Position numbers and translations under genes: made by a program | Notes under the pieces: generated by a model | The model's database searches: none | What the model saw: the letters and a program-made list of their open reading frames with translations, nothing else | What the model was told of the DNA's origin: nothing | Origin: Clostridia bacterium | GTDB lineage: Bacteria; Bacillota; Clostridia; UBA1381; UMGS1253 | Reading direction: 5' to 3' | Assembly: GCA_045636325.1 (NCBI GenBank) | Contig: JAZTXH010000009.1 | Span: 59,479-123,478 of the forward strand | DNA: 64,000 bases | In this document: positions 31,888 to 64,000 of the stretch, piece by piece | Position numbering within the stretch: position 1 is the first letter of the stretch | Layout of the letters: the number at the start of each line of letters is the position of its first letter

Positions 31888-33174
31888 TTATATAGCCATA
31901 ACTTCACACTTTTGTTCTGATTCAAACAAGGGCAACTGCGTAAATTTTTCCTCCATGAGCCTTGGCAGAAAACTTTTATCACATATAATGTTTGCTAAAA
32001 TAAATTCCTTTGAAAAAATCATTCCCTTTTCATATTTTCCGTTACATGTTATAAAATATTTTGCACGCTTTAACACGATTCCCATTCTCTTTAAATCTTC
32101 ATACTGTATGCTTCTTACCTTTCTTGCCCTGCAAATTCGAAATGCACTTTGAGTACCAATGCCCGGCACGCGAAGAAGCATACTGTAATCTGCGGTGTTA
32201 ATTTCAACAGGGAAACGATTGAGATTTCTTATAGCCCAATTACATTTCGGGTCAAGAGCAGGCGAAAAATTAGGCTCCCTGGGTGTAAGAATTTCATCAG
32301 CTTCAAAGCCGTAAAATCTCATCAGCCAGTCTGCCTGATACAATCTGTGTTCACGAAGAAGCGGCGGAGTTGTCAGCTGCGGCAGATTATTCCCCTGACG
32401 CGCAGGAATATAAGCAGAAAAAAACACACGCTTTAGTGAATATTTATTATACATCCCTTGCGTAAGCTTTAAAATCTGATAATCGCTTTCACCACTCGCA
32501 CCAATAATCATTTGCGTGCTTTGACCTGCCTGAGCAAACTTTTTTGCACTCCTGTGTTTTACAATTTCGCCCCTTGCTTCGATAATGGAATTTTTTATCT
32601 GACCCATAGGCGCTAAAATTGCGTTTTTGCTTTTCTGCGGTGCAAGCTTTTTTAAGCTTTGCTCACTTGGAAGCTCAATATTAACGCTTAATCGGTCAAC
32701 AAGAAAACCAAGCCTTTGCACAAGTGCCGGGTCTGACCCAGGAATCACCTTGGCGTGAATATAGCCGTTAAACCAGTAATGATAGCGAAGTTTTTCTATG
32801 GCACTGCACATAAGCTCCATTGTGTAATCAGGATTTTTATAAACAGCTGAGCTTAAAAACAAACCTTCAATATAATTTCTAATATAAAAATTAATTGTTA
32901 AATCAGCAACCTCATCTGGCGTAAAGCTTGCCCTTGGTGTATCACAGGATATGGCATTCACACAATATTTACAATCATAAACACATTCATTTGATAAAAG
33001 AATTTTTAATAAAGAAATACATCTTCCGTCAGATGCAAAACTATGACAAATACCCGCACAGCTTGTATTACCCATTCCTTTATCATTTGATTTTCTGTTA
33101 ATTCCGCTTGATGTGCACGCAGCATCATATTTTGCCGCATCCGTTAAAATCTTTAATTTTTCTTCCACATTCAT
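31888..33174 (-). CDS. putative DNA modification/repair radical SAM protein (TIGR03916 type)
   Basis: N-terminal KLKILTDAAKYDAAC, cluster motif CVYDCKYC, and a C-terminal HhH-like LLRVPGIG. Confidence 0.7.
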   Translation of the reverse strand: MNVEEKLKILTDAAKYDAACTSSGINRKSNDKGMGNTSCAGICHSFASDGRCISLLKILLSNECVYDCKYCVNAISCDTPRASFTPDEVADLTINFYIRNYIEGLFLSSAVYKNPDYTMELMCSAIEKLRYHYWFNGYIHAKVIPGSDPALVQRLGFLVDRLSVNIELPSEQSLKKLAPQKSKNAILAPMGQIKNSIIEARGEIVKHRSAKKFAQAGQSTQMIIGASGESDYQILKLTQGMYNKYSLKRVFFSAYIPARQGNNLPQLTTPPLLREHRLYQADWLMRFYGFEADEILTPREPNFSPALDPKCNWAIRNLNRFPVEINTADYSMLLRVPGIGTQSAFRICRARKVRSIQYEDLKRMGIVLKRAKYFITCNGKYEKGMIFSKEFILANIICDKSFLPRLMEEKFTQLPLFESEQKCEVMAI

Positions 33175-36027: not shown

Positions 36028-39000
36028 TTAAAGCTCAACATATCCGTCAAACACTTTGACTGCCTCACCGGTCATAAATACATCCTCATCAGTATATTTT
36101 ATGTGAAGCTCACCGCCGCGAAGTTTAACCTTAATATCTTCGTTTTTGGGGCAATATCCATTTTCAACTGCCGCCACAACCGCCGCACATGCACCGGTTC
36201 CGCATGCCCATGTTTCGCCGTTGCCGCGCTCCCACACACGCATTCTTATGGATTTGTCATCCATAACACAAACAAACTCAACATTTACTCTTTCTGGAAA
36301 CAACTCGCAATTTTCAATTTCAGGACCAATTTTTTCAATGTCCATTTTTTCAATGTCATTACTGAATATAACGCAATGGGGATTTCCCATTGAAACGCAT
36401 GTAATATCGTAGTGTTTTCCTGCGATTTCTACACTGTGGCAAACAACTTTTTCTCCATCAATATTTACCGGAACATCTTCCGGCTTAACAGAAGCTTGAC
36501 CCATATCCACAGCTGCCATAAACACACTGTCATTCTTTAAAAACACCTTAAGTGTTTTTATGCCGCTCATTGTTTCTATCTTCATAACATCCTTTTTAAC
36601 AATGCCTTTATCATAAAGGAATTTTGCCACACAACGTATAGCATTGCCACCCATCTTGCCTTCGCTGCCGTCAACATTGAATATGCGCATTTTTGCATCT
36701 GCCGCATCGGAAGAATAAATAAGCACCACGCCGTCTGCACCCACAGAAAATCTTCTGTCACACAAACGAATAGCAAGTCCTTCAGGATTATCTATCTTTT
36801 GCTCCATACAGTTAATATAAATATAGTCATTACCACAGGTATGCATCTTTGTAAACTGAATCTTAAGCTTATCTTCACGCATACTGTTTATATCAACAAT
36901 CTCAGTTGTATGCTCCGAATAACGGCTCATCAGACTGTCTGCTATTGCATTGGCAGTATCAATAGAAGTAAGACACGGAATATTTCTTTCTACTGCCTTT
37001 CTTCTTATCTTAACACTGTCACGTGTGGGAATTCTTCCCTTTGTAGATGTTGAAATAACATAGCTTAGCTTACCACTTTCAATAAGCTCGAGAGTGTTAT
37101 TATCACCCTCATGAATTTTATTTACAACGCTTACTTCAAGACCTGCATCTCTTAAAACCTTTGCTGTTCCCCTTGTAGAGTAAAGCTCAAATCCCATATC
37201 AGAGAATTTCTTTGCTAGGTCAAATACTTCGCTTTTATCAGAATCACGAACAGTTATAAATACTCCGCCTGTTTTATTGAGTTTATATCCGCTTGCTGCA
37301 AGACCTTTATAAAGCGCCTCCTGAAGATTCTGAGCAACACCCAAAACCTCACCGGTAGATTTCATTTCAGGGCCTAACTGGTTATCCACATTAATAAGCT
37401 TTTCAAAACTGAATACAGGCACCTTAACCGCCACATAAGACGAAAGCTTATAAAGACCTGTTCCATAACCCATATCCTTAAGCTTTTCGCCAAGCATAGC
37501 ACGGGTAGCAAGGTCAACCATGGGAATTCCCGTTACCTTACTGATATAAGGAATTGTTCTTGATGCTCTGGGGTTAACCTCAATAACATAAAGCTCGTCA
37601 TCATATATAACATACTGAATGTTAACAAGCCCATAGGTTTTCATTTCGACCGCAAGGTTTTTAGTACATTCAATAATTCTGTCACGCATTTTGTCATCAA
37701 GATTAAATGCAGGATATACCGCAATTGAGTCTCCCGAGTGAACACCCGCGCGCTCAATATGCTCCATAATGCCGGGAATTAATATTTCTTCACCATCACA
37801 TATAGCGTCAACCTCAATTTCCGTACCCATAAGATATTTATCAATAAGCACCGGATTTTTAATGTTCTGTGCAAGAATAATTGACATATATTCTCTTACA
37901 TCTTCATCGGAAAATGCGATAATCATATTCTGTCCGCCAAGAACGTATGAAGGACGCAAAAGCACCGGATAACCAAGCTTATGAGCAACATCCAGCGCTT
38001 CACATGCCGCCATTACAGTGTAACCGCTGGGACGTTCAATATGAAGCTTTTCCAAAAGCGCATCAAAACGTTCTCTGTCTTCTGCCATATCAATACTGTC
38101 AGCAGATGTACCAAGAATGTTCATTCCTATTTCATCAAGATAATTTGTAAGTTTGATTGCAGTCTGACCGCCAAATGCTACAACAACTCCAAAAGGATTT
38201 TCTGTTTTTATAATATCTGTTACATCTTCTTTTGTAAGCGGCTCAAAATAGAGTCTATCTGATGTATCAAAGTCTGTTGAAACAGTCTCAGGGTTATTAT
38301 TTACTATAACAACATCATATCCAAGCTCTTTAAGTGCCCATACACAATGAACAGATGCATAGTCAAATTCTATACCCTGACCAATTCTTATAGGACCTGA
38401 ACCAAATACTATAATTGTCTTCTTTTTATCTTTTTTATTTTTCAAAAATTCTTCTGCTTCGTTTTCATCATCAAATGTTGAGTAGAAATACGGTGTCTGT
38501 GCTTCAAACTCAGCCGCACAAGTGTCAACCATTTTAAACACTGCGCTTCTCTTGTTTATAATCTTCTGACCTGAAAGTCTTTCAATAACACTATCCATAT
38601 ATCCAAGCTTCTTTGCTTCAATATAAAGCTCGTCTGTAAGCGTTTCACTTTCAAGACGCTTCTGCATATTAGAAAGATTCAAAAGCTTGTATAAGAACCA
38701 GTTATCAATTTTTGTTATATCATTTATTTCTTCACAGCTTACCCCACGATACAGCGCTTCATATACCATGAACAAACGAAGGTCATTACAATCATAAAGT
38801 GCTTCATGAAGTTCTTCATCTGTCTTTGATTTTGCACCCTTATAGCTTAAAGTATCAAGTGAAATTTCAGCGCCGCGAACAGCCTTCATCATTGCAGCTT
38901 CAAAATTATCAGCAATACTCATAACCTCACCGGTAGCTTTCATCTGTGTTCCAAGAGCACGCTTTGCATATACAAACTTATCAAATGGCCATTTGGGGAA

Positions 39001-40068
39001 TTTAACAACAACATAATCGATAGAAGGCTCAAAACAAGCATATGTTGTTCCCGTAACGGCATTTTTAATTTCGCTTAATTCATAACCGATAGCAATTTTT
39101 GCTGCAACCTTCGCAATCGGGTAACCTGTCGCCTTTGAAGCCAACGCTGATGAACGTGAAACTCTGGGGTTAACCTCAATAACTGCATATTCAAAGCTGT
39201 CAGGCTTTAGTGCAAACTGACAGTTACATCCGCCTTCAATTCCAAGCTCGTTAACAATTGCCAAAGCTGCACTTCTTAACATCTGATATTCTTTATCAGA
39301 AAGTGTAACTGCCGGTGCAACAACTATTGAGTCCCCTGTGTGCACACCAACAGGGTCAAAGTTTTCCATGCTGCAGACAGTAATTGCATTTCCCTTACTG
39401 TCACGGATAACTTCAAACTCTATTTCTTTCCAGCCAGAAATACATTTTTCAACCAATACCTGATGTATGGGCGAAAGGTCAAGCCCATTCTGGCAGATTT
39501 CTTTCATTTCTTCATCGTTATTTACAATACCGCCGCCAGTACCTCCAAGGGTAAATGCAGGTCTTATAATAACGGGATATTCAATCTCATGAGCAAAAGC
39601 CATACCGCTTTCCAAATCATTTACAACAGTTGACGGGATACACGGCTGATTAATTTTATCCATCATATCCTTAAACATCTGTCGGTCTTCAGCGCGGTCA
39701 ATTGTTTCAACTCGTGCACCCAAAAGTTTTACACCATGTTCTTCTAAAAAGCCTTCTTTTGCGAGTTTCATAGACATTGTAAGACCTGTCTGACCGCCAA
39801 GAGTTGACAAAAGGCTGTCAGGCTTCTCTTTTTCAATAATTCTTTTAAGTGTTGTAATATCAAGGGATTCAATATATATTTTATCCGCCATTTTATTATC
39901 TGTCATAATTGTTGCAGGATTTGAGTTTACCAAAACAACCTCAAGCCCATCTTCTTTTAAAGCACGACATGCCTGAGTTCCCGCATAGTCAAATTCAGCT
40001 GCCTGACCAATGACAATAGGTCCAGAGCCAATAACCATTACTTTCTTTATATCCTTATTAAGTGGCAT
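36028..40068 (-). CDS. carB: carbamoyl-phosphate synthase large subunit fused in frame to a DapF-like (diaminopimelate epimerase fold) domain
   Basis: 1346 aa. Residues 1 to ~1062 are canonical CarB (two ATP-grasp halves plus an MGS-like domain). The last ~284 aa carry DapF blocks FTKMHTCGNDYI, NVDGSEGKMGGNAIRC, SMGNPH and ERGNGETWACGTGACA. Confidence 0.9.
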   Translation of the reverse strand: MPLNKDIKKVMVIGSGPIVIGQAAEFDYAGTQACRALKEDGLEVVLVNSNPATIMTDNKMADKIYIESLDITTLKRIIEKEKPDSLLSTLGGQTGLTMSMKLAKEGFLEEHGVKLLGARVETIDRAEDRQMFKDMMDKINQPCIPSTVVNDLESGMAFAHEIEYPVIIRPAFTLGGTGGGIVNNDEEMKEICQNGLDLSPIHQVLVEKCISGWKEIEFEVIRDSKGNAITVCSMENFDPVGVHTGDSIVVAPAVTLSDKEYQMLRSAALAIVNELGIEGGCNCQFALKPDSFEYAVIEVNPRVSRSSALASKATGYPIAKVAAKIAIGYELSEIKNAVTGTTYACFEPSIDYVVVKFPKWPFDKFVYAKRALGTQMKATGEVMSIADNFEAAMMKAVRGAEISLDTLSYKGAKSKTDEELHEALYDCNDLRLFMVYEALYRGVSCEEINDITKIDNWFLYKLLNLSNMQKRLESETLTDELYIEAKKLGYMDSVIERLSGQKIINKRSAVFKMVDTCAAEFEAQTPYFYSTFDDENEAEEFLKNKKDKKKTIIVFGSGPIRIGQGIEFDYASVHCVWALKELGYDVVIVNNNPETVSTDFDTSDRLYFEPLTKEDVTDIIKTENPFGVVVAFGGQTAIKLTNYLDEIGMNILGTSADSIDMAEDRERFDALLEKLHIERPSGYTVMAACEALDVAHKLGYPVLLRPSYVLGGQNMIIAFSDEDVREYMSIILAQNIKNPVLIDKYLMGTEIEVDAICDGEEILIPGIMEHIERAGVHSGDSIAVYPAFNLDDKMRDRIIECTKNLAVEMKTYGLVNIQYVIYDDELYVIEVNPRASRTIPYISKVTGIPMVDLATRAMLGEKLKDMGYGTGLYKLSSYVAVKVPVFSFEKLINVDNQLGPEMKSTGEVLGVAQNLQEALYKGLAASGYKLNKTGGVFITVRDSDKSEVFDLAKKFSDMGFELYSTRGTAKVLRDAGLEVSVVNKIHEGDNNTLELIESGKLSYVISTSTKGRIPTRDSVKIRRKAVERNIPCLTSIDTANAIADSLMSRYSEHTTEIVDINSMREDKLKIQFTKMHTCGNDYIYINCMEQKIDNPEGLAIRLCDRRFSVGADGVVLIYSSDAADAKMRIFNVDGSEGKMGGNAIRCVAKFLYDKGIVKKDVMKIETMSGIKTLKVFLKNDSVFMAAVDMGQASVKPEDVPVNIDGEKVVCHSVEIAGKHYDITCVSMGNPHCVIFSNDIEKMDIEKIGPEIENCELFPERVNVEFVCVMDDKSIRMRVWERGNGETWACGTGACAAVVAAVENGYCPKNEDIKVKLRGGELHIKYTDEDVFMTGEAVKVFDGYVEL

Positions 40069-57135: not shown

Positions 57136-57897
57136 TCATACTTTTACAAGTTCTACCTTGCTTTCTTTTAAAACATTTTCCCAACTTTCGGAAATCGTCG
57201 CATCAGTTATAAGACATTCTATATCTTCAAACCTTGCAAGTTTAGCAAATCCAACTCTGCCAATCTTACTTTTGTCACATAAATAATACGCACTTTTGGA
57301 ATTTTTAAGCATACATTTTTTTATGCCGCACTCCTGCTCATTACTTTCAAGGATTCCCGTTTCTTCCATAATGCCTTTACTGGAAAAAAACATTTTATCA
57401 GCAAAATAATTTTTAGAAATATTATCTTCAGCCAATGTTCCTACAAGGCTCATATTGTGACTAGCAATTCCGCCAACAGCAATAAGCTTAATGTTTTCAC
57501 TACCGGCAAGCTCATTCACAACACGAATGGAATTTGTAATGACAGTAATATTTTTTATATTATTTATTTCCTTTGCCATATAAAAAGTAGTAGTAGACGC
57601 ATCAAGAAAAACTGTGTCACCAGGCAGTATGTATCCTGCTGCCACTGCAGCAAGCTTTTCCTTTGCATCAACATTCGTACGCTTTCTTTTTTCAAGCGAA
57701 AGCTCATATGCAGTTGCATCAATTGGAACAGCTCCGCCATGTGTTCGCATTAAACACTCTTGTTTTTCAAGTTTTTCAAGATCACGTCTTATTGTCTCTT
57801 CTGTAACTCCAAGCTCACTGCTTAATCGGCTTACCCATACTGCACCGTTATCAGCAAGCTTTTGAAGTATAATCTTCTGACGTTCAAGTGCAAACAT
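57136..57897 (-). CDS. DeoR/GlpR family transcriptional regulator
   Basis: N-terminal HTH_DeoR (ERQKIILQKL…VTEETIRRDLEKLE) plus a DeoR C-terminal sensor domain. Starts 11 nt after the pduL stop. Confidence 0.85.
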   Translation of the reverse strand: MFALERQKIILQKLADNGAVWVSRLSSELGVTEETIRRDLEKLEKQECLMRTHGGAVPIDATAYELSLEKRKRTNVDAKEKLAAVAAGYILPGDTVFLDASTTTFYMAKEINNIKNITVITNSIRVVNELAGSENIKLIAVGGIASHNMSLVGTLAEDNISKNYFADKMFFSSKGIMEETGILESNEQECGIKKCMLKNSKSAYYLCDKSKIGRVGFAKLARFEDIECLITDATISESWENVLKESKVELVKV

Positions 57898-57908: not shown

Positions 57909-58583
57909 CTACTTCTGAATTATTCTTACCTTGTTTCCATTCTTGAGGCCGGCTGAGTTTGCATCATCAGTATCAATATGCATCTCAACATTAAAATCAT
58001 CACGAACTCGAACCTGAACACCATAAAATTTTGTAGTTTTTAAGTTTTCGCCTTCTATCATAACGTCAACATAATCATTATCCTTAATGGCGTGCTTTTC
58101 GGCATATTCAGGAGTTAAGTGTATATGGCGGTTGGCAATGATAACGCCTTCCTTTAAATATACGCTACCCTTAGGTCCTACAATAACCAGTTTTTCCGAA
58201 CCCTTAATTTCACCTGAAGGTCTCACCGGAGGGCTAACCTTTAAAACAAACGTATCTGTTCTTGAAATTTCTACTTGAGTATTTTTTCTTACCGGACCCA
58301 AAACCCTTACCTTTTCTATACTTTTCAGTGATGGACCAACCAAAGTAACAAACTCATTTGAAGCATACTCTCTGCCCATAAGAGTTTTAAACTTTGTAAG
58401 CTCATATCCTTTACCGAAAAGAGTGTCTAAATCTTCACGGCTAAGGTGAATGTGTCTTTGTGACACACCTACCTTAATCTCTCCATCATCAGATTCCTTA
58501 TCACTTGCCTGCGGTGCACCGCTTTTATTTATATCAGCAATAACTTCTGCTACTATCTTTTCAATCTGTGCTGCATCGTACAT
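57909..58583 (-). CDS. pduL: phosphate propanoyltransferase (PduL-type phosphotransacylase) with an N-terminal encapsulation peptide
   Basis: Duplicated PduL motifs (GVSQRHIHLS, IIANRHIHLT). An amphipathic N-terminal helix AAQIEKIVAEVIADI. Confidence 0.85.
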   Translation of the reverse strand: MYDAAQIEKIVAEVIADINKSGAPQASDKESDDGEIKVGVSQRHIHLSREDLDTLFGKGYELTKFKTLMGREYASNEFVTLVGPSLKSIEKVRVLGPVRKNTQVEISRTDTFVLKVSPPVRPSGEIKGSEKLVIVGPKGSVYLKEGVIIANRHIHLTPEYAEKHAIKDNDYVDVMIEGENLKTTKFYGVQVRVRDDFNVEMHIDTDDANSAGLKNGNKVRIIQK

Positions 58584-58600
58584 TTATTTCACCTCACAAA

Positions 58601-59248
58601 TTACTCATTCATATCAAAAAACTTAACAATTTCGCCTGATACATTTGCAATAACTTCACAACCGTATACCTTACCAAGCCTTGATGCCGCATTACTGCCG
58701 TTTTCCAAAGCTGATTTAACATCAGAAACTCTGCCCGCAATGATAAATGTACAAAGTCTGCCTCCAAGGCGCTTTTCTGTATGCACAAGGCGTATGTTTG
58801 CCGCCTTAAGCATATTGTCAAGACCTTCTATAGATGCAACAAGCCCCTGAACCTCCAAAAGACCAATGGCACCTGTATAGCTCGGCACAAATTCCCCTTT
58901 TCTTGATTTTTCAAGGTTTTCTTTAAAATGCTTGTTGTATTTATCTTTATTTATATCTGCAAGATACGCCATCTTGTCCACAGTATCCTCAGGTCTTGGA
59001 ATAACATGAGAAACAATAAACTTTCCGCAATCCTTTGCATAAGCGCTTCCTGCTTCAACAGCCGCGTTAACTGCATCGACATTGCCCTCTATCTTTACCA
59101 CCATAACAAGCGGTGCAGGCACATCTGTTCTTATTGGTCTGTTTCTGTCAAAAGCGACAATCTGAACGTCAGCCGCTTTTGCTGCTGTGTCTGCCACACA
59201 AACCGCAGTTGTAAAGCTGTAAACCTCAATCAAACCTAATGCTTTCAT
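58601..59248 (-). CDS. tandem-BMC-domain shell protein (BMC-T)
   Basis: 215 aa. Two non-permuted BMC domains (ALGLIEVYS… and AIGLLEVQG…). Confidence 0.75.
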   Translation of the reverse strand: MKALGLIEVYSFTTAVCVADTAAKAADVQIVAFDRNRPIRTDVPAPLVMVVKIEGNVDAVNAAVEAGSAYAKDCGKFIVSHVIPRPEDTVDKMAYLADINKDKYNKHFKENLEKSRKGEFVPSYTGAIGLLEVQGLVASIEGLDNMLKAANIRLVHTEKRLGGRLCTFIIAGRVSDVKSALENGSNAASRLGKVYGCEVIANVSGEIVKFFDMNE

Positions 59249-59265
59249 TTATAACACTCTCCGTA

Positions 59266-60693
59266 TCAAACAATATGTAGTCCGTCAGCCATTACGCATC
59301 TTCTCTGACGAGTAAAGCTTCTTGCTGATGTAATACCCTCACCGGTAGGTCCTGCAATAGTAAATGTTGTATGACCTTCACCCCCTGCACCGATACCTGC
59401 ATAAGAAGGAGCATTCTTAACAAATATTGTTGTTTCAACTGCACGCGCAAATGCGGTAAGTCTGTCAACATTCTTTGAATGAATATGTGCACTGTGGCGG
59501 TTGCCATGTTCTGCCTTAACTGCCATATTTATAGCTTCTTCAATATCATTAACTCTAACAATAGCAAGAATTGGCATCATCATTTCAACCTGAACAAAAG
59601 GATGATTTTCTTCTGTTTCACAAATAATCAGTTTAGCATCAGCCTCAATTCCAAGCTCTTTTAAGAACTTCTTTGCATCTTTTCCTACCCATTTTTTATT
59701 TATAGAATATTTACCGTCTTTTTCAACAAGACAAAGCTTAACCAAATCATCAATCTGCTTACCCTTAAGAAGATATGCACCTGCATCCTGCATGTAAGCA
59801 ACCAGCTGGTCTGTAATACTTGCAAATGCAAAACATTCTTTTTCTGCAATACAGGGAAGGTTATTGTCAAAGCTTGCACCTGCAACAATATCAGATGCCG
59901 CCTTTTTAATATCAGCAGTATCATCTACTATAACAGGAGGATTGCCTGCACCAGCACCTATTGCCTTCTTGCCTGAAGACAAAAGTGCACGCACAACGCC
60001 TGGGCCACCTGTTGCAACAAGCATCTTTACAAGAGGAGATGCCATCATTTCATCTGAGCTTTCCTTTGTAGGCTGCTCTACTGAAACAACTAAATTTTCA
60101 GGACCGCCTGCTTCAAGAATTGCGCGGTTTACCAAATCAACTGCGTAATTTGCTGTTTTGCACGCATTAGGGTGGGGATTGAAAACAACTGCGTTACCGC
60201 CTGCAATCATACCCATTGAGTTACATAAAACTGTTTCACTGGGATTTGTAGAAGGTGTTATACTTCCAATAACGCCGTAAGGTGCCATCTCTATAAGTGT
60301 AAGACCTGCATCGCCTGTAAATACCTTCGGCTCCAAATCCTCTGTACCAGGAGTCTTTTTTGCCACAAGCTGATGCTTGATAATCTTATCAGGCACATTA
60401 CCCATACCTGTTTCTTCAACACCAAGCTTTGCCATTTCTTCTGCTTCCTGTAATGTAAGCTTTCTAATATTTGAAATCATCTGTTCTCTCTGCTCAACTG
60501 TATATGAGCGGAACTGAGCATATGCCTTACCTACTGCATCCAAAGCTTCGCCCATTGTTTTAAATACACCCTTCTGCGCATGACACTTGCAGTCACCACC
60601 GCAACTGCCGCCACAAGAACATTTGCTCTCGCCATCCATAACGCTCATAACTGCTTCAACAATTTTTGATAACTGTGTTTCATCAATCTTCAT
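59266..60693 (-). CDS. CoA-acylating aldehyde dehydrogenase (PduP/EutE type) with an encapsulation peptide and a Cys-rich linker
   Basis: Catalytic block NNLPCIAEKE. N-terminal helix ETQLSKIVEAVMSVM. Linker CSCGGSCGGDCKCH at residues 25-38. Confidence 0.85.
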   Translation of the reverse strand: MKIDETQLSKIVEAVMSVMDGESKCSCGGSCGGDCKCHAQKGVFKTMGEALDAVGKAYAQFRSYTVEQREQMISNIRKLTLQEAEEMAKLGVEETGMGNVPDKIIKHQLVAKKTPGTEDLEPKVFTGDAGLTLIEMAPYGVIGSITPSTNPSETVLCNSMGMIAGGNAVVFNPHPNACKTANYAVDLVNRAILEAGGPENLVVSVEQPTKESSDEMMASPLVKMLVATGGPGVVRALLSSGKKAIGAGAGNPPVIVDDTADIKKAASDIVAGASFDNNLPCIAEKECFAFASITDQLVAYMQDAGAYLLKGKQIDDLVKLCLVEKDGKYSINKKWVGKDAKKFLKELGIEADAKLIICETEENHPFVQVEMMMPILAIVRVNDIEEAINMAVKAEHGNRHSAHIHSKNVDRLTAFARAVETTIFVKNAPSYAGIGAGGEGHTTFTIAGPTGEGITSARSFTRQRRCVMADGLHIV

Positions 60694-60748
60694 ATCACAT
60701 TGCTCCTGTCTTTAAAAATATCTATCACAAAAAACTTAATTTTCTACT

Positions 60749-61297
60749 TTATAAAATTGCCTGCCATAGCTTTTTATCGGGATTTGCAATAACAGAACTA
60801 TCAAGAAACATTCCTGCTCCGCCTGCTTTTTCTTTTGCACGTTCAATTGCCGCACTTACAGCTGCAATTTCACCTGTTATAAGCATATAGCTCTTACCGC
60901 ACATTCCCCTTGCAAGCCTTAACTCTATAAGCTCAACCATGCTGGTCTTTGCCGCTTCATCTGCTGCAACAATCATACTTGCCGCACTGTATGTTTCCAA
61001 AACACCCAGCGCCTTTGCATTCTCAATCTCACCGGTACCATATATTGCAGGAATAACCGACTCGTGAGGATTACCAAGAACAAAGCTGTCAATCATTTTA
61101 TCACCACATAAGCTTTTAGCCGCATCCACACAAGCACGCACCGCACTTATCTCCCCCGAAAAAAGCATAATATACTTACCCGGACACACCGTCTGAGCTT
61201 CAATAATTTCCACTTCAGCAGTTTTAACAACCATATCAGCAGCATACATACCTGCCGAAACAGTCTGATATTCTATCATTCCAATTGCACTTCTCAT
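60749..61297 (-). CDS. PduT-like tandem BMC shell protein
   Basis: Two BMC domains with QTVCPGKY (the Cys position that ligates a 4Fe-4S cluster in PduT). Start set to the ATG with a GGAGGAGAG SD. Confidence 0.75.
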   Translation of the reverse strand: MRSAIGMIEYQTVSAGMYAADMVVKTAEVEIIEAQTVCPGKYIMLFSGEISAVRACVDAAKSLCGDKMIDSFVLGNPHESVIPAIYGTGEIENAKALGVLETYSAASMIVAADEAAKTSMVELIELRLARGMCGKSYMLITGEIAAVSAAIERAKEKAGGAGMFLDSSVIANPDKKLWQAIL

Positions 61298-61314
61298 ATT
61301 ATTCTCTCCTCCGC

Positions 61315-62646
61315 TCACGCATCAATCACAACAAACCTGTCGCATACTTCTTTTACTTTTCCGCTGACAGATGCATGAATGTCTGTTCCTAAAGCATCTA
61401 AGGGTGCTTTGGCAATAACATCGCCCAAATTCACCTTGTCGCCTTTTTTAACAACCGGCACGCAACCCGCACCGATATTTTGCGCCATTGAAATCTTTAC
61501 TCGTTTGATTTTCAATTCTTCTTCCGTTAATTTTGCTTCTCTATCATATTTTTTAAGATTTAATCTTGCCGTTAATCTTGACATAGACACTCTACGGTAA
61601 GAAAAATCCTTCTTTTCGTCTTTAAGTTCACGTTTTGGTGGCTTTATGCCATTTTTTCTAAGCCCGCTTCTGTACTCATCAATAAGAGTCTTTGGCGAAA
61701 GCATTTGATTACAAGCAAACATCTCACACAAGCCGCACTGCGAACAAAAGAATGTGTCAAGCATTGCGTCTGTATCAAGCACTGTTCCCGAAGACGCTGC
61801 ATGCATAAAAACAGCTGGGTCAATTGGGTATCCCAATGCATTTCTTGGGCATAAATCCGTGCACATTCTGCACTGACAACACGCACTCATTGCCCTTTTC
61901 ATACCGATAGACGGATTAATCAGCCTTTTTGTAACTATATTATGTTCTTTTGGCATAACAAGAATTGCATTGCTTGTTTTAGTTACCGTATCAGTTTCGT
62001 TTACTATTCTGCCCGTCATAGGACCACCGCCTATCAACACACAGTTTTCTATAGTTTTTCCACCACAAAGCTCTATAAGCTCACCATATGTTGTACCAAT
62101 CGGCACTTTTAAGGTTTTTGCCGTTTCTACCTCACCTGTAACAGTTACATATTTATGGGTAACCGGCAATTTTTCCTCTACTGCATTATAAATGTTTAAT
62201 ACTGTTTCAACATTAAATACTATACATCCTATCTGAATAGGAATTCCCCCCGGCGGAACACGTTTCTTTGTTGCCTCATGAATTAAAACAACCTCGTCTC
62301 CGGCAGGATATATTTCAGGCAAAGTGCACACGCTTACACCTTCGAAAGCGTCAATATAACTCATAACTGAATCATAAGCTTCTTTGTATGAGCCTTTAAG
62401 ACAAATTATTACTTCCTTTGCCGAAACCGCTTTTTTTATAAGGTCAAGACCTTTTAAAATTTCCAGGGCATAATTTGCCAGAAGCTGACGGTGAAGTTTT
62501 AAAAGCGGCTCACATTCAGCACAATTCAAAAGGATAGTTTGCGCTCTTTCGTCAAGCTTAGCATAGCTTGGAAAGCCCGCACCACCGGCACCTGCTATTC
62601 CGTTGTCTTTTAAAATTCCTTTTAGCTCTTCAAGCTTCATTTGCAT
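61315..62646 (-). CDS. PduS/RnfC-like flavin- and 4Fe-4S-binding oxidoreductase
   Basis: 443 aa. GAGGAGFPSYAKL, an SLBB-like middle region, and two CxxCxxCxxxCP ferredoxin motifs. Confidence 0.75.
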   Translation of the reverse strand: MQMKLEELKGILKDNGIAGAGGAGFPSYAKLDERAQTILLNCAECEPLLKLHRQLLANYALEILKGLDLIKKAVSAKEVIICLKGSYKEAYDSVMSYIDAFEGVSVCTLPEIYPAGDEVVLIHEATKKRVPPGGIPIQIGCIVFNVETVLNIYNAVEEKLPVTHKYVTVTGEVETAKTLKVPIGTTYGELIELCGGKTIENCVLIGGGPMTGRIVNETDTVTKTSNAILVMPKEHNIVTKRLINPSIGMKRAMSACCQCRMCTDLCPRNALGYPIDPAVFMHAASSGTVLDTDAMLDTFFCSQCGLCEMFACNQMLSPKTLIDEYRSGLRKNGIKPPKRELKDEKKDFSYRRVSMSRLTARLNLKKYDREAKLTEEELKIKRVKISMAQNIGAGCVPVVKKGDKVNLGDVIAKAPLDALGTDIHASVSGKVKEVCDRFVVIDA

Positions 62647-62671: not shown

Positions 62672-62938
62672 TTATAAGTTCACCCAGTCATCAACGATAC
62701 CTACGATAGCGGCATCAACCGGTGAAGTGTCCATACTGCAACCTATTCTTGCTGCGCTTCCAGTTGCAATCAAAACAATTTCACCTATTCCGGCACCAAC
62801 GTTATCAACAGCAACTATTCTGCCTTCGCCCATGCCTTCCATGGGTGAAACTATTAAAAACTTACTTCCAACAAGATTTTCATTTTTTCGTGTCGCAACA
62901 ACACTTCCTACAACCTTACCAACAATCATGAATTTCAC
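62672..62938 (-). CDS. EutN/CcmL-family pentameric vertex protein (BMC-P)
   Basis: 88 aa. (M)IVGKVVGSVVATRK N-terminus. The start could be the GTG at 62938 or the ATG at 62929. Confidence 0.85.
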   Translation of the reverse strand: MKFMIVGKVVGSVVATRKNENLVGSKFLIVSPMEGMGEGRIVAVDNVGAGIGEIVLIATGSAARIGCSMDTSPVDAAIVGIVDDWVNL

Positions 62939-63029: not shown

Positions 63030-63434
63030 TCAAATAGCGGGTAAAATCTTTTCAACGTCACCGTGAGGTCTGGGAATTACGTGTACAGCTACTAATTCAC
63101 CAAGCTTTGATGCAGAGCTGGAACCTGCCTCTACAGCAGCTTTAACCGCACCTACGTCACCTCTTATCATAACGCTTAGAAGACCGCTACCGATTTTCTC
63201 TGTACCAACCAAAGTAACGTTTGCAGCCTTTAACATTGCGTCAGCAGCCTCTACTGCTGCAACTAAACCTCTTGTTTCTACCATACCTAATGCTTCCATT
63301 GCCATTTTTACTTCCTCCTTTATTTTTTCCTTTACTTCATCTTTTATTTCATTAACCGCTGCAGTTGCAGTCGGCTTATCAGCTCTTACGCTTTTTGCAC
63401 GGCTTCTTTTTGCCGGCGTCTTTTTTTCTTCCAT
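63030..63434 (-). CDS. BMC-H shell protein with a 43-aa charged N-terminal extension (alternative internal start at 63305)
   Basis: The C-terminal 91 aa is nearly identical to the neighbouring PduA/EutM-like BMC-H. Both M1 (AGGGGTGA SD) and M44 (AAGGAGG SD 8 nt upstream) have ribosome-binding sites. Confidence 0.8.
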
Positions 63435-63450
63435 TTTAAATCACCCCTGA

Positions 63451-63726
63451 TTAAAATTTGGGTAAAATCTTTTCAACATCAGCGTGGGGTCTGGGGATTA
63501 CATGTACAGCTACTAATTCTCCAAGCTTTGATGCAGCATTTGCACCAACTTCTGTAGCAGCTTTAACTGCGCCAACGTCACCTCTTACCATAACACTTAC
63601 AAGACCGCTACCAATCTTTTCTGTGCCGATTAAAACAACCTCTGCTGCTTTAACCATTGCATCTGCAGCCTCTACTGCTGCTGTTAAACCTCTTGTTTCT
63701 ACCATACCTAATGCTTCCTGTGCCAT
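63451..63726 (-). CDS. BMC-H shell protein (PduA/EutM-like)
   Basis: 91 aa. ALGMVETRG…[20 protein letters not shown]…VHVIPRP. Confidence 0.9.
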
Positions 63727-63765: not shown

Positions 63766-64000
63766 TTATTCATTTATTATAGCAACCTTCAAGCCTTCCA
63801 TCTTGAGGTTAGTCTGAAGTGCTTCATTTATTTTGTCTAAAGGATACTTATGAGTAATAAGATCCTTCATGGGAAGACCTATCCCCTTTGCTCTCTTTAA
63901 GAAATCAAATGTTGTTGCATAGTCTCTTAAAGTGTAAACCCATGAACCTACAACGGTAATCTCTTTTGAACAAATGTCAAAGTGAGGGTTAATTGTTGCG
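63766..64000 (-). CDS. 3' end of a zinc-type medium-chain alcohol/polyol dehydrogenase (5' part off-window)
   Basis: Hand translation of the minus strand gives …ATINPHFDICSKEITVVGSWVYTLRDYATTFDFLKRAKGIGLPMKDLITHKYPLDKINEALQTNLKMEGLKVAIINE*, an MDR-family C-terminus. Stop at 63766-63768. Confidence 0.6.
   Translation of the reverse strand, partial: ATINPHFDICSKEITVVGSWVYTLRDYATTFDFLKRAKGIGLPMKDLITHKYPLDKINEALQTNLKMEGLKVAIINE

Follow-up and report, generated by a model that had tools for sequence, protein, structure and literature searches.

A cysteine-rich insert beside the predicted encapsulation peptide of a microcompartment aldehyde dehydrogenase and its resemblance to a Cys/His module on the co-packaged aldolase

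The aldehyde dehydrogenase gene and its neighbors

We analyzed a 64,000-nucleotide stretch of DNA from a Clostridia bacterium (contig JAZTXH010000009.1; the whole stretch is referred to as the window) that holds part of a bacterial microcompartment (BMC) locus. Our subject is a Cys-rich insert in the linker between the predicted N-terminal encapsulation peptide (EP) and the catalytic core of an acylating aldehyde dehydrogenase (AldDH) encoded in this locus. The gene occupies 59266..60693 on the minus strand (475 aa plus stop) and its product is a microcompartment enzyme of the PduP/EutE/Cphy1178 type (Pfam PF00171, E = 2e-35). Translation of the open reading frame (ORF) gives the N-terminus MKIDETQLSKIVEAVMSVMDGESKCSCGGSCGGDCKCHAQKGVFKTMGEAL. 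The Aldedh domain was placed at aa 36-433 by Pfam, and the best match in the PDB was 4c3s, a Cphy1178-type enzyme (E = 3e-160 over aa 40-473), with NLPCIAEKE conserved. From the alignment to 4c3s and the invariant columns of 48 aligned orthologues, the catalytic core spans aa 42-475 (59269..60570, minus strand). It begins with GVFKTMGEAL and includes NLPCIAEKEC, and its catalytic-Cys motif, found in the context P-C-I-A-E-K-E, is invariant in that alignment.

Ahead of the core lies the predicted EP, ETQLSKIVEAVMSVMD, at aa 5-20 (60634..60681, minus strand), which AlphaFold2 models as an amphipathic helix. Its pattern of hydrophobic and hydrophilic residues is kept in all of the orthologues aligned. 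A profile of the AldDH N-terminus aligned weakly with the N-terminal EP of the diol dehydratase subunit PduD (1dio_B), a match that is not significant (E = 0.38). The whole linker from EP to core is GESKCSCGGSCGGDCKCHAQK, aa 21-41 (60571..60633, minus strand), and is predicted to be coil. In the AlphaFold2 model the helix at aa 5-20 is followed by coil at aa 19-38 with a predicted local distance difference test score (pLDDT) below 50, and the ordered core begins at about aa 43. A reading of this DNA made earlier from the letters alone (the sequence-only reading) had proposed the order targeting helix, linker, core, and both Pfam and the AlphaFold2 prediction bear this out. By eye, a Shine-Dalgarno-like AGGAG stands at 60703..60707 (minus strand), 9 nt upstream of the AldDH ATG. 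Since this box is present and the N-terminus is conserved in orthologues, the annotated start is credible, and hence the EP and the Cys linker should be translated. By its fold, its predicted EP and linker and the shell genes clustered around it, the protein is a BMC-associated acylating AldDH.

The Cys cluster itself, CSCGGSCGGDCKCH, maps to aa 25-38 (60580..60621, minus strand) in the ORF translation and reads C25-S-C27-G-G-S-C31-G-G-D-C35-K-C37-H38. Exact mapping confirmed the five Cys and one His within 14 residues that had been noted there. The spacing is C-x-C-x3-C-x3-C-x-C-H, with CxC pairs, Gly/Ser/Lys spacers, no aromatic residues and a terminal Cys-His, and a four-residue unit (CGGS, then CGGD) is likely repeated in tandem. 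At a background of about 1% Cys, a binomial estimate of finding five Cys in a given window of 14 residues is P of about 2e-7. We then scanned the real coding frames of the 64 kb for Cys density, and elsewhere at least four Cys per 14 aa occurred only in the ferredoxin motifs of a PduS-like protein and in the CxxxCxxC of a radical-SAM-like ORF. By the estimate above, the AldDH cluster is not due to chance. Its spacing differs both from the ferredoxin pattern CxxCxxCxxxCP and from the radical SAM pattern CxxxCxxC. The insert matched no Pfam family, metallothioneins included, even at E = 10. Metallothioneins are small free-standing proteins or domains with about 15-30% Cys arranged in CxC or CxxC motifs. 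The description "metallothionein-like" in the sequence-only reading was apt for the local composition (Cys at 5 of 14 positions, two CxC pairs) and did not extend to the protein, which is a 475-aa enzyme with a 14-residue insert and no such Pfam match.

The neighboring genes of the microcompartment locus are likewise on the minus strand. To one side of the AldDH gene lie genes for a DeoR regulator (57136..57897, Pfam), the phosphotransacylase PduL (57909..58583; Pfam PTAC), whose EP linker has no Cys, and a tandem-BMC shell protein (58601..59248; Pfam BMC). To the other side are a second protein of that class, a PduT-like tandem-BMC shell protein (60749..61318; Pfam BMC twice), then a PduS-like flavoprotein with two ferredoxin-type Cys motifs (61315..62646; Pfam Complex1_51K, SLBB, Fer4_17 and RnfC_N), a EutN pentamer protein (62672..62938, Pfam) and two BMC-H shell proteins (63030..63434 and 63451..63726), identified by Pfam and, from their translations, both Cys-free. 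The PduT-like protein carries TVCPGKY, which fits the PduT pore motif C-P/S/A-G-K/R/S-Y/F as quoted in Ferlez 2019. The Pfam matches and this motif agree with the earlier statement that a BMC shell locus, including a PduT-like protein with a cluster Cys of its own, surrounds the AldDH. One of the roles then suggested for the cysteines was disulfide tethering to the shell. This is unlikely, since both BMC-H proteins in the window are free of Cys, and for the same reason we rejected a tether to the major shell protein.

The window stops at 64000, short of the alcohol dehydrogenase (ADH), aldolase and glycyl radical genes found in the loci of relatives. Relatives with the same gene order have, in the upstream half of the locus, genes for a glycyl radical enzyme and its activase, for a class II aldolase and an HbpS-like protein, and for a Zn-type ADH; AldDH orthologues at 77-93% identity were all found in syntenic BMC loci. 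By this gene content the locus is of the glycyl radical enzyme-associated microcompartment 5 (GRM5) type, which carries fucose or rhamnose to 1,2-propanediol and is known from Clostridium phytofermentans and Roseburia inulinivorans. The nearest genomes are metagenome-assembled genomes of uncultured Clostridia from ruminant and human guts. We found no close relatives of the window's lineage among 185,579 species representatives or in the JGI metagenome set.

Several other features were observed in these loci and in the window. The BMC-H protein at 63030..63434 has a 45-residue N-terminal extension rich in Lys, Glu and Ala ahead of its BMC domain, and relatives have a comparable one. In the window, as in most relatives, the tandem-BMC gene (58601..59248) is one uninterrupted ORF of 215 aa; in the lineage of AldDH P0010 (described below) it is split into two BMC genes of 117 and 89 aa (L001:3028-3658, L088:11475-12105). 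The Zn-type ADH is 545 aa long in the closest fully sampled relative (L004:5299-6936) and about 400 aa elsewhere (L002:5766-6968), and the start-codon call that gives the L004 protein its extra N-terminal residues, about 145 of them, may be wrong. Outside the microcompartment locus, a single 1346-aa ORF at 36028..40068 (minus strand) is an unusual CarB-DapF fusion. Its first part (aa 1-1034) is an entire large subunit of carbamoyl-phosphate synthase, up to and including the MGS domain, and an entire diaminopimelate epimerase (PF01678 with two repeats, reaching aa 1339) follows in frame. The radical-SAM-like ORF (31888..33174, minus strand, 428 aa) matches radical SAM below threshold, carries CVYDCKYC as its CxxxCxxC and has a helix-hairpin-helix motif as well. 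It is the sole other gene of the window, outside the BMC genes, with a dense Cys cluster.

Linker cysteines among AldDH orthologues

We compared the linker across AldDH orthologues, using as the comparison set the best 120 of about 8000, which are 77-100% identical to the window's enzyme. Linkers of this enzyme type had been described in the sequence-only reading as unconserved and Cys-poor, and this proved correct. Their length ranges from 5 to 25 aa across orthologues and their sequence varies as well. In a published survey of 362 sequences AldDH EP linkers average 1 +/- 2.5% Cys (Aussignargues 2015, Table 2, PMC4594438). Among 80 species-level orthologues, 79 have 0-2 linker Cys (one of them has two) and one has at least three. 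Nearly all of 85 diverse AldDH representatives (no more than 50% mutual identity) have 0-1, as do 38 of 40 distant, distinct N-termini from metagenomes. The window's enzyme therefore shares family, locus type and the helix-linker-core order with known EP-bearing enzymes such as PduP and Cphy1178, but where their linkers are poorly conserved, hydrophilic and about 1% Cys, Cys makes up 5 of the 14 residues here and is conserved within the lineage.

The comparison of orthologous linkers, which the sequence-only reading had named as a check, gave a divided answer. The Cys are kept in the two closest sequences, P0002 (93% identity, linker CSCGGDCKCH, spacing C-x-C-x3-C-x-C-H) and P0003 (88%, GCSCGGDCSC). 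They are gone from P0004 (87%, KSASSSNRLK), a sister to P0003 with exactly the same EP, and the linkers of P0005-P0009 (84-86%) contain none. At the codon level, the four Cys common to the window, P0002 and P0003 show synonymous flips between TGT and TGC and zero replacements, while intervening and flanking residues differ. Where P0003 reads TGT TCT TGT GGC GGA GAT TGT TCG TGC, P0004 has AGT TCT TCT and a deletion of six codons. Read from these codons, P0004 shows decay of the Cys module, with CSC turned into SSS and the remainder deleted.

Linker cysteines were also found away from this group. P0010 (81%) belongs to a separate clade nested among Cys-free sequences and carries CTCGGGECKGTCGKNCTCH; in three members of its cluster KCTCGGGECKGTCGKNCTCHKK is unchanged while adjoining residues vary. 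A third clade (79%) has LCDCCN, and its three Cys are kept while D/Q and N/D vary. In a tree of the AldDH core domain these are three separate Cys-bearing clades. Two distant AldDHs from other microcompartment types also have clusters in this position. P0218 (L171:8001-9536; AQERCSACQCSH) has CSACQCSH after an EP-like helix and lies in a locus like the sugar phosphate utilization (SPU) type with DeoC aldolase, BMC and EutN genes. P0156 (L172:337-2160; LCDTTKCDSDCEACK), from a locus of another type with BMC, flavoprotein, EutN and acetyl-CoA hydrolase genes, has the Cys cluster CDTTKCDSDCEAC after an EP-like helix. The P0156 protein has an N-terminal extension of about 169 aa ahead of its core, with two EP-like helices flanking the Cys cluster. 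A profile of N-terminal regions run against a set of 5.8 billion proteins returned mostly short fragments and one new variant (P0122, CSCGGNCGDDCK), and is a poor survey. P0002 has one CGGx unit fewer than the window, and the fragment P0122 has two such units.

These data bear on a neutral origin, in which the insert would be low-complexity sequence: a permissive Gly/Ser spacer where functionless Cys drift in and out and a CGGx unit is duplicated by slippage. Gly codons (GGY) and Ser codons (AGY, TCY) are a single mutation from Cys (TGY). The patchy occurrence among close relatives, the outright decay in P0004 and the differing number of units in the window, P0002 and P0122 all fit such drift, as do the variable linker length, the disorder predicted by AlphaFold2 and the finding of three or more Cys in just one of the 80 species-level genomes. 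We nevertheless consider a neutral origin somewhat unlikely. It would require at least three clades, and two further BMC types besides, to have gathered 4-6 Cys within 9-19 residues, every time right behind the EP and from a background of about 1% Cys. It also leaves without a reason the zero replacements at shared Cys in the face of synonymous change, and the composition mirrors that of an aldolase module (described below) that is clearly under selection. Finally, exposed free thiols are usually selected against. On these comparisons the insert is conserved wherever it occurs. Several lineages have gained or kept it, and it can disappear with nothing taking its place. Since it is absent or decayed in orthologues of 84-87% identity it is dispensable, and any function it has would be non-essential.

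The rarity of the insert bears as well on a redox role, either as a disulfide switch or tether (inside the linker, from one cargo protein to another or onto the shell) or as a sacrificial thiol buffer for the glycyl radical enzyme. A high density of thiols beside a shell-binding helix, in an organelle that houses an oxygen-labile radical enzyme, would suit such a role. A general protective function, however, is hard to reconcile with an insert this rare, and cysteines spaced as CxC are ill placed to form an intramolecular disulfide. The host organisms, uncultured Clostridia of the gut, presumably live as strict anaerobes and keep their cytoplasm reducing. We therefore regard a redox or disulfide role as highly improbable.

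A Cys/His module on the co-packaged class II aldolase

In the loci of relatives the class II aldolase (fuculose/rhamnulose-phosphate type) ends in an EP-like helix (for example DLVAEITKKVMEQLGK), and a stretch rich in Cys and His precedes that helix. Examples are encoded at L004:3992-4795, L002:4483-5277 and L088:4353-5150, and the proteins are P0297-P0416. All 98 distinct tails among the aldolase's 120 best homologues carry 3-6 Cys. In an alignment of 82 sequences H219, P220, C224, G230, S233, C234, H235 and C237 are invariant, giving the proximal part of the module the form H-P-x3-C-(P-N)-x-G-x-S-C-H-x-C, or more loosely H-P-x3-C-x8-10-C-H-x-C. When much more distant loci were pooled in, H-P-x2-4-C-x6-12-C-H-x-C was found in 179 of 189 distinct tails, at least three Cys in 185 and a terminal EP-like helix in 184. 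Downstream of the invariant part are variable repeats of the CGGxC type, often terminated by His (SCHSCGGSCSGNCGGH, SCHGCGGNCKGDCGNH, SCHSCGGNCSCG). The module is evidently under selection, judging by these invariant positions.

A published survey gives aldolase linkers 5.5 +/- 3.6% Cys, yet describes them as without conservation of composition or sequence (Aussignargues 2015, PMC4594438). We found no description of the AldDH insert or of the aldolase module in the BMC catalogue, in the C. phytofermentans papers or by full-text searches. The aldolase Cys/His module thus appears from our alignments to be a conserved, nearly universal and apparently undescribed element.

The AldDH insert and the aldolase tail resemble one another. 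Both belong to cargo of the same organelle, and in both a Cys/Gly/Ser/His stretch lies beside the EP; the CGGxC repeats of the aldolase, with their final His, look similar to the AldDH insert. When SCHSCGGSCSGNCGGH was set against the AldDH insert, KC-SCGGSCGGDCKCH (KCSCGGSCGGDCKCH), 10 of 16 positions matched, over a stretch too short and too biased in composition to establish homology. They differ in that the aldolase module is C-terminal, near-universal and built on the invariant H-P-x3-C-P-N-x-G-x-S-C-H-x-C, whereas the AldDH insert has no counterpart of the proximal HP...C-P-N part. We do not claim that the insert was copied from the aldolase gene, as no significant DNA similarity was found. 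All aldolases recovered from the 80 species-level loci carry the module, both where the AldDH linker has Cys and where it has none, and genomes with a Cys-rich AldDH (L002, L022, L088) keep it too. This indicates that the AldDH insert is an addition and not a relocation of the aldolase module.

Cysteines beside an EP were seen on a third cargo protein. Some HbpS-like proteins (PF03928), in L118 and L142, have Cys pairs directly after an N-terminal EP-like helix (EEVLRRMNSERKIPAHQCRCKKH, HQCRCKKH; KKCCKDH). No such Cys pairs were found in the PduL and ADH linkers of related loci.

Cysteine-based sites of other kinds are known in this architecture. The [4Fe-4S] site in the PduT pore and the Fe-S site in the GrpU pore are likewise Cys-based and belong to glycyl-radical or propanediol-utilization (PDU) microcompartments, but they sit on shell proteins, in pores on symmetry axes, with one conserved Cys per protomer, while the AldDH insert is on a cargo tether and has 4-6 Cys per chain. 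PduK, with its Cys-rich C-terminal extension, is another example on a shell protein. A review of glycyl radical microcompartments names PduS, PduT, GrpU and the activases as Fe-S sites and does not mention cargo linkers (Ferlez 2019).

The aldolase module and the neighboring genes together allow a judgment on an Fe-S cluster, possibly bridging subunits, that would lie in a luminal electron path (PduS-like protein, PduT pore cluster, glycyl radical activase) or supply the fourth ligand of PduT. The genes for the PduS-like and PduT-like proteins adjoin that of the AldDH. According to Ferlez 2019, the fourth Fe ligand of PduT is unknown and the activases of GRM5 alone lack the ferredoxin-like insertion of other GRM activases; in related loci the activases are short, at 261-264 aa. 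About half of the aldolase modules are CxxCxxC with a remote Cys-Pro. However, the AldDH pattern CxCx3Cx3CxC matches no canonical motif, and the aldolase spacing is variable (CxxCxxC or CxxCxxxC). With its invariant His and three Cys and a variable fourth Cys, the aldolase module suggests a structural site of the Zn type more than a canonical Fe-S motif. Furthermore, AldDH chemistry needs no electron carrier besides NAD+.

The gene content of related loci also speaks against an Fe-S cluster. PduS and PduT are found in essentially all relatives with or without the insert, so the link to PduT at which the sequence-only reading had hinted has no support, and we found no link of the insert to PduS or PduT among related loci. 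Both proteins persist where the aldolase has lost all of its Cys: L142 and L152 retain them. L142 has the glycyl radical enzyme and its activase as well; the stretch available for L152 is shorter and did not yield these two. Within these two loci, loss of the aldolase Cys did not track with loss of PduS, PduT, the glycyl radical enzyme or the activase, and no compensating Cys cluster was found on other cargo. Taken together, we consider an Fe-S cluster improbable.

A possible metal-thiolate site next to the encapsulation peptide

The explanation we favor, tentatively and with a probability that we put at roughly 0.45, is that the AldDH insert forms an accessory metal-thiolate site in the flexible linker next to the EP and parallels the aldolase module. 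We favor it because the Cys are conserved against synonymous change, because clusters recur independently at one position, because the Cys density is typical of metal sites and because the insert mirrors the aldolase module. The recurrent AldDH clusters and the conserved aldolase module make a functional, probably metal-binding role likelier than it would appear from this one sequence.

The candidate site would most likely be of the Zn type, with four to five Cys and a His. On the AldDH, the insert could be an occasional counterpart to the Cys/His module found almost universally on the aldolase of the GRM5 organelle. Its thiolates would chelate a metal, and the otherwise floppy tether would become a compact or bridged knot near the targeting helix. 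Cphy1178-type AldDHs are tetramers; four inserts per tetramer would gather 16-20 thiols near the helices used for cargo aggregation and shell binding, and such a knot would help to position or cross-link cargo during assembly of the core. Metal binding, the identity of the metal and a role in organizing cargo are inferences. Full-length Cphy1178-type enzymes aggregate, and their crystal structures were solved after removal of the N-terminus; no solved structure covers the AldDH linker or the aldolase tail module.

Cys/His metal-binding tails are known elsewhere in bacteria, among them the SlyD C-terminus, which ends in CGCH, and the HypB N-terminus with CxxCGC. The AldDH insert is like these tails and metallothioneins in its CxC pairs, its Gly/Ser/Lys spacers and its terminal Cys-His, and differs in being only 14 residues within a 475-aa enzyme.

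Several observations weigh against a metal-thiolate site. The insert is missing from orthologues at 84-87% identity and has decayed in P0004. It is carried by few lineages, all of them close relatives, and the argument from conservation therefore rests on little divergence. The variation in number of CGGS/CGGD units resembles slippage. The insert has no relatives in Pfam or the PDB; Pfam scans and profile searches of the PDB with the insert and with the aldolase module returned nothing beyond chance, and transferrin matches to "GKxSCH" (E of about 0.03) were rejected as a fortuitous short word. The AlphaFold2 linker is a low-confidence coil. On the aldolase side, the model was poor (mean pLDDT 60) and uninformative on the module, because the alignment held only sequences more than 77% identical. 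In L142 and L152 the aldolase tails have no Cys at all (GKHPATNNMPTAAANTAK...) and keep the C-terminal EP. By blastn-short and codon comparison, the AldDH insert and the aldolase tails of the loci compared showed no DNA similarity (E above 0.2).

With these points in view, the interpretation given in the sequence-only reading, in which the cysteines bind a metal or Fe-S cluster or form a redox or disulfide tether, is partly supported. The insert is probably an optional metal-binding add-on. A wider proposal, which we hold to be rather unlikely, is that Cys/His clusters beside EPs are an unrecognized metal-dependent element with which GRM5-type organelles assemble their core or wire their lumen for redox. 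Such an element would be fixed on the aldolase in nearly all of the 189 distinct tails. AldDHs of three clades or more, and those of two further BMC types, would have recruited it independently, as would some HbpS-like cargo.

The AldDH insert varies the known EP-linker-core design, and the broader result is the Cys/His module beside the EP of the aldolase, which makes the question experimentally tractable. EPs are the handle by which enzymes are loaded into protein organelles, in nature and in synthetic biology, and the linker behind them has been treated as an inert spacer. If the insert is inert, it shows how easily Gly/Ser linkers drift toward Cys in anaerobes. If a metal-thiolate site is present, the "unconserved linker" of EPs would be a functional part in some systems and could offer a controllable engineering handle, for example metal- or chelator-switchable loading. 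Some microcompartments would then use metal- or redox-dependent contacts in the packing of their cargo or in the handling of electrons.

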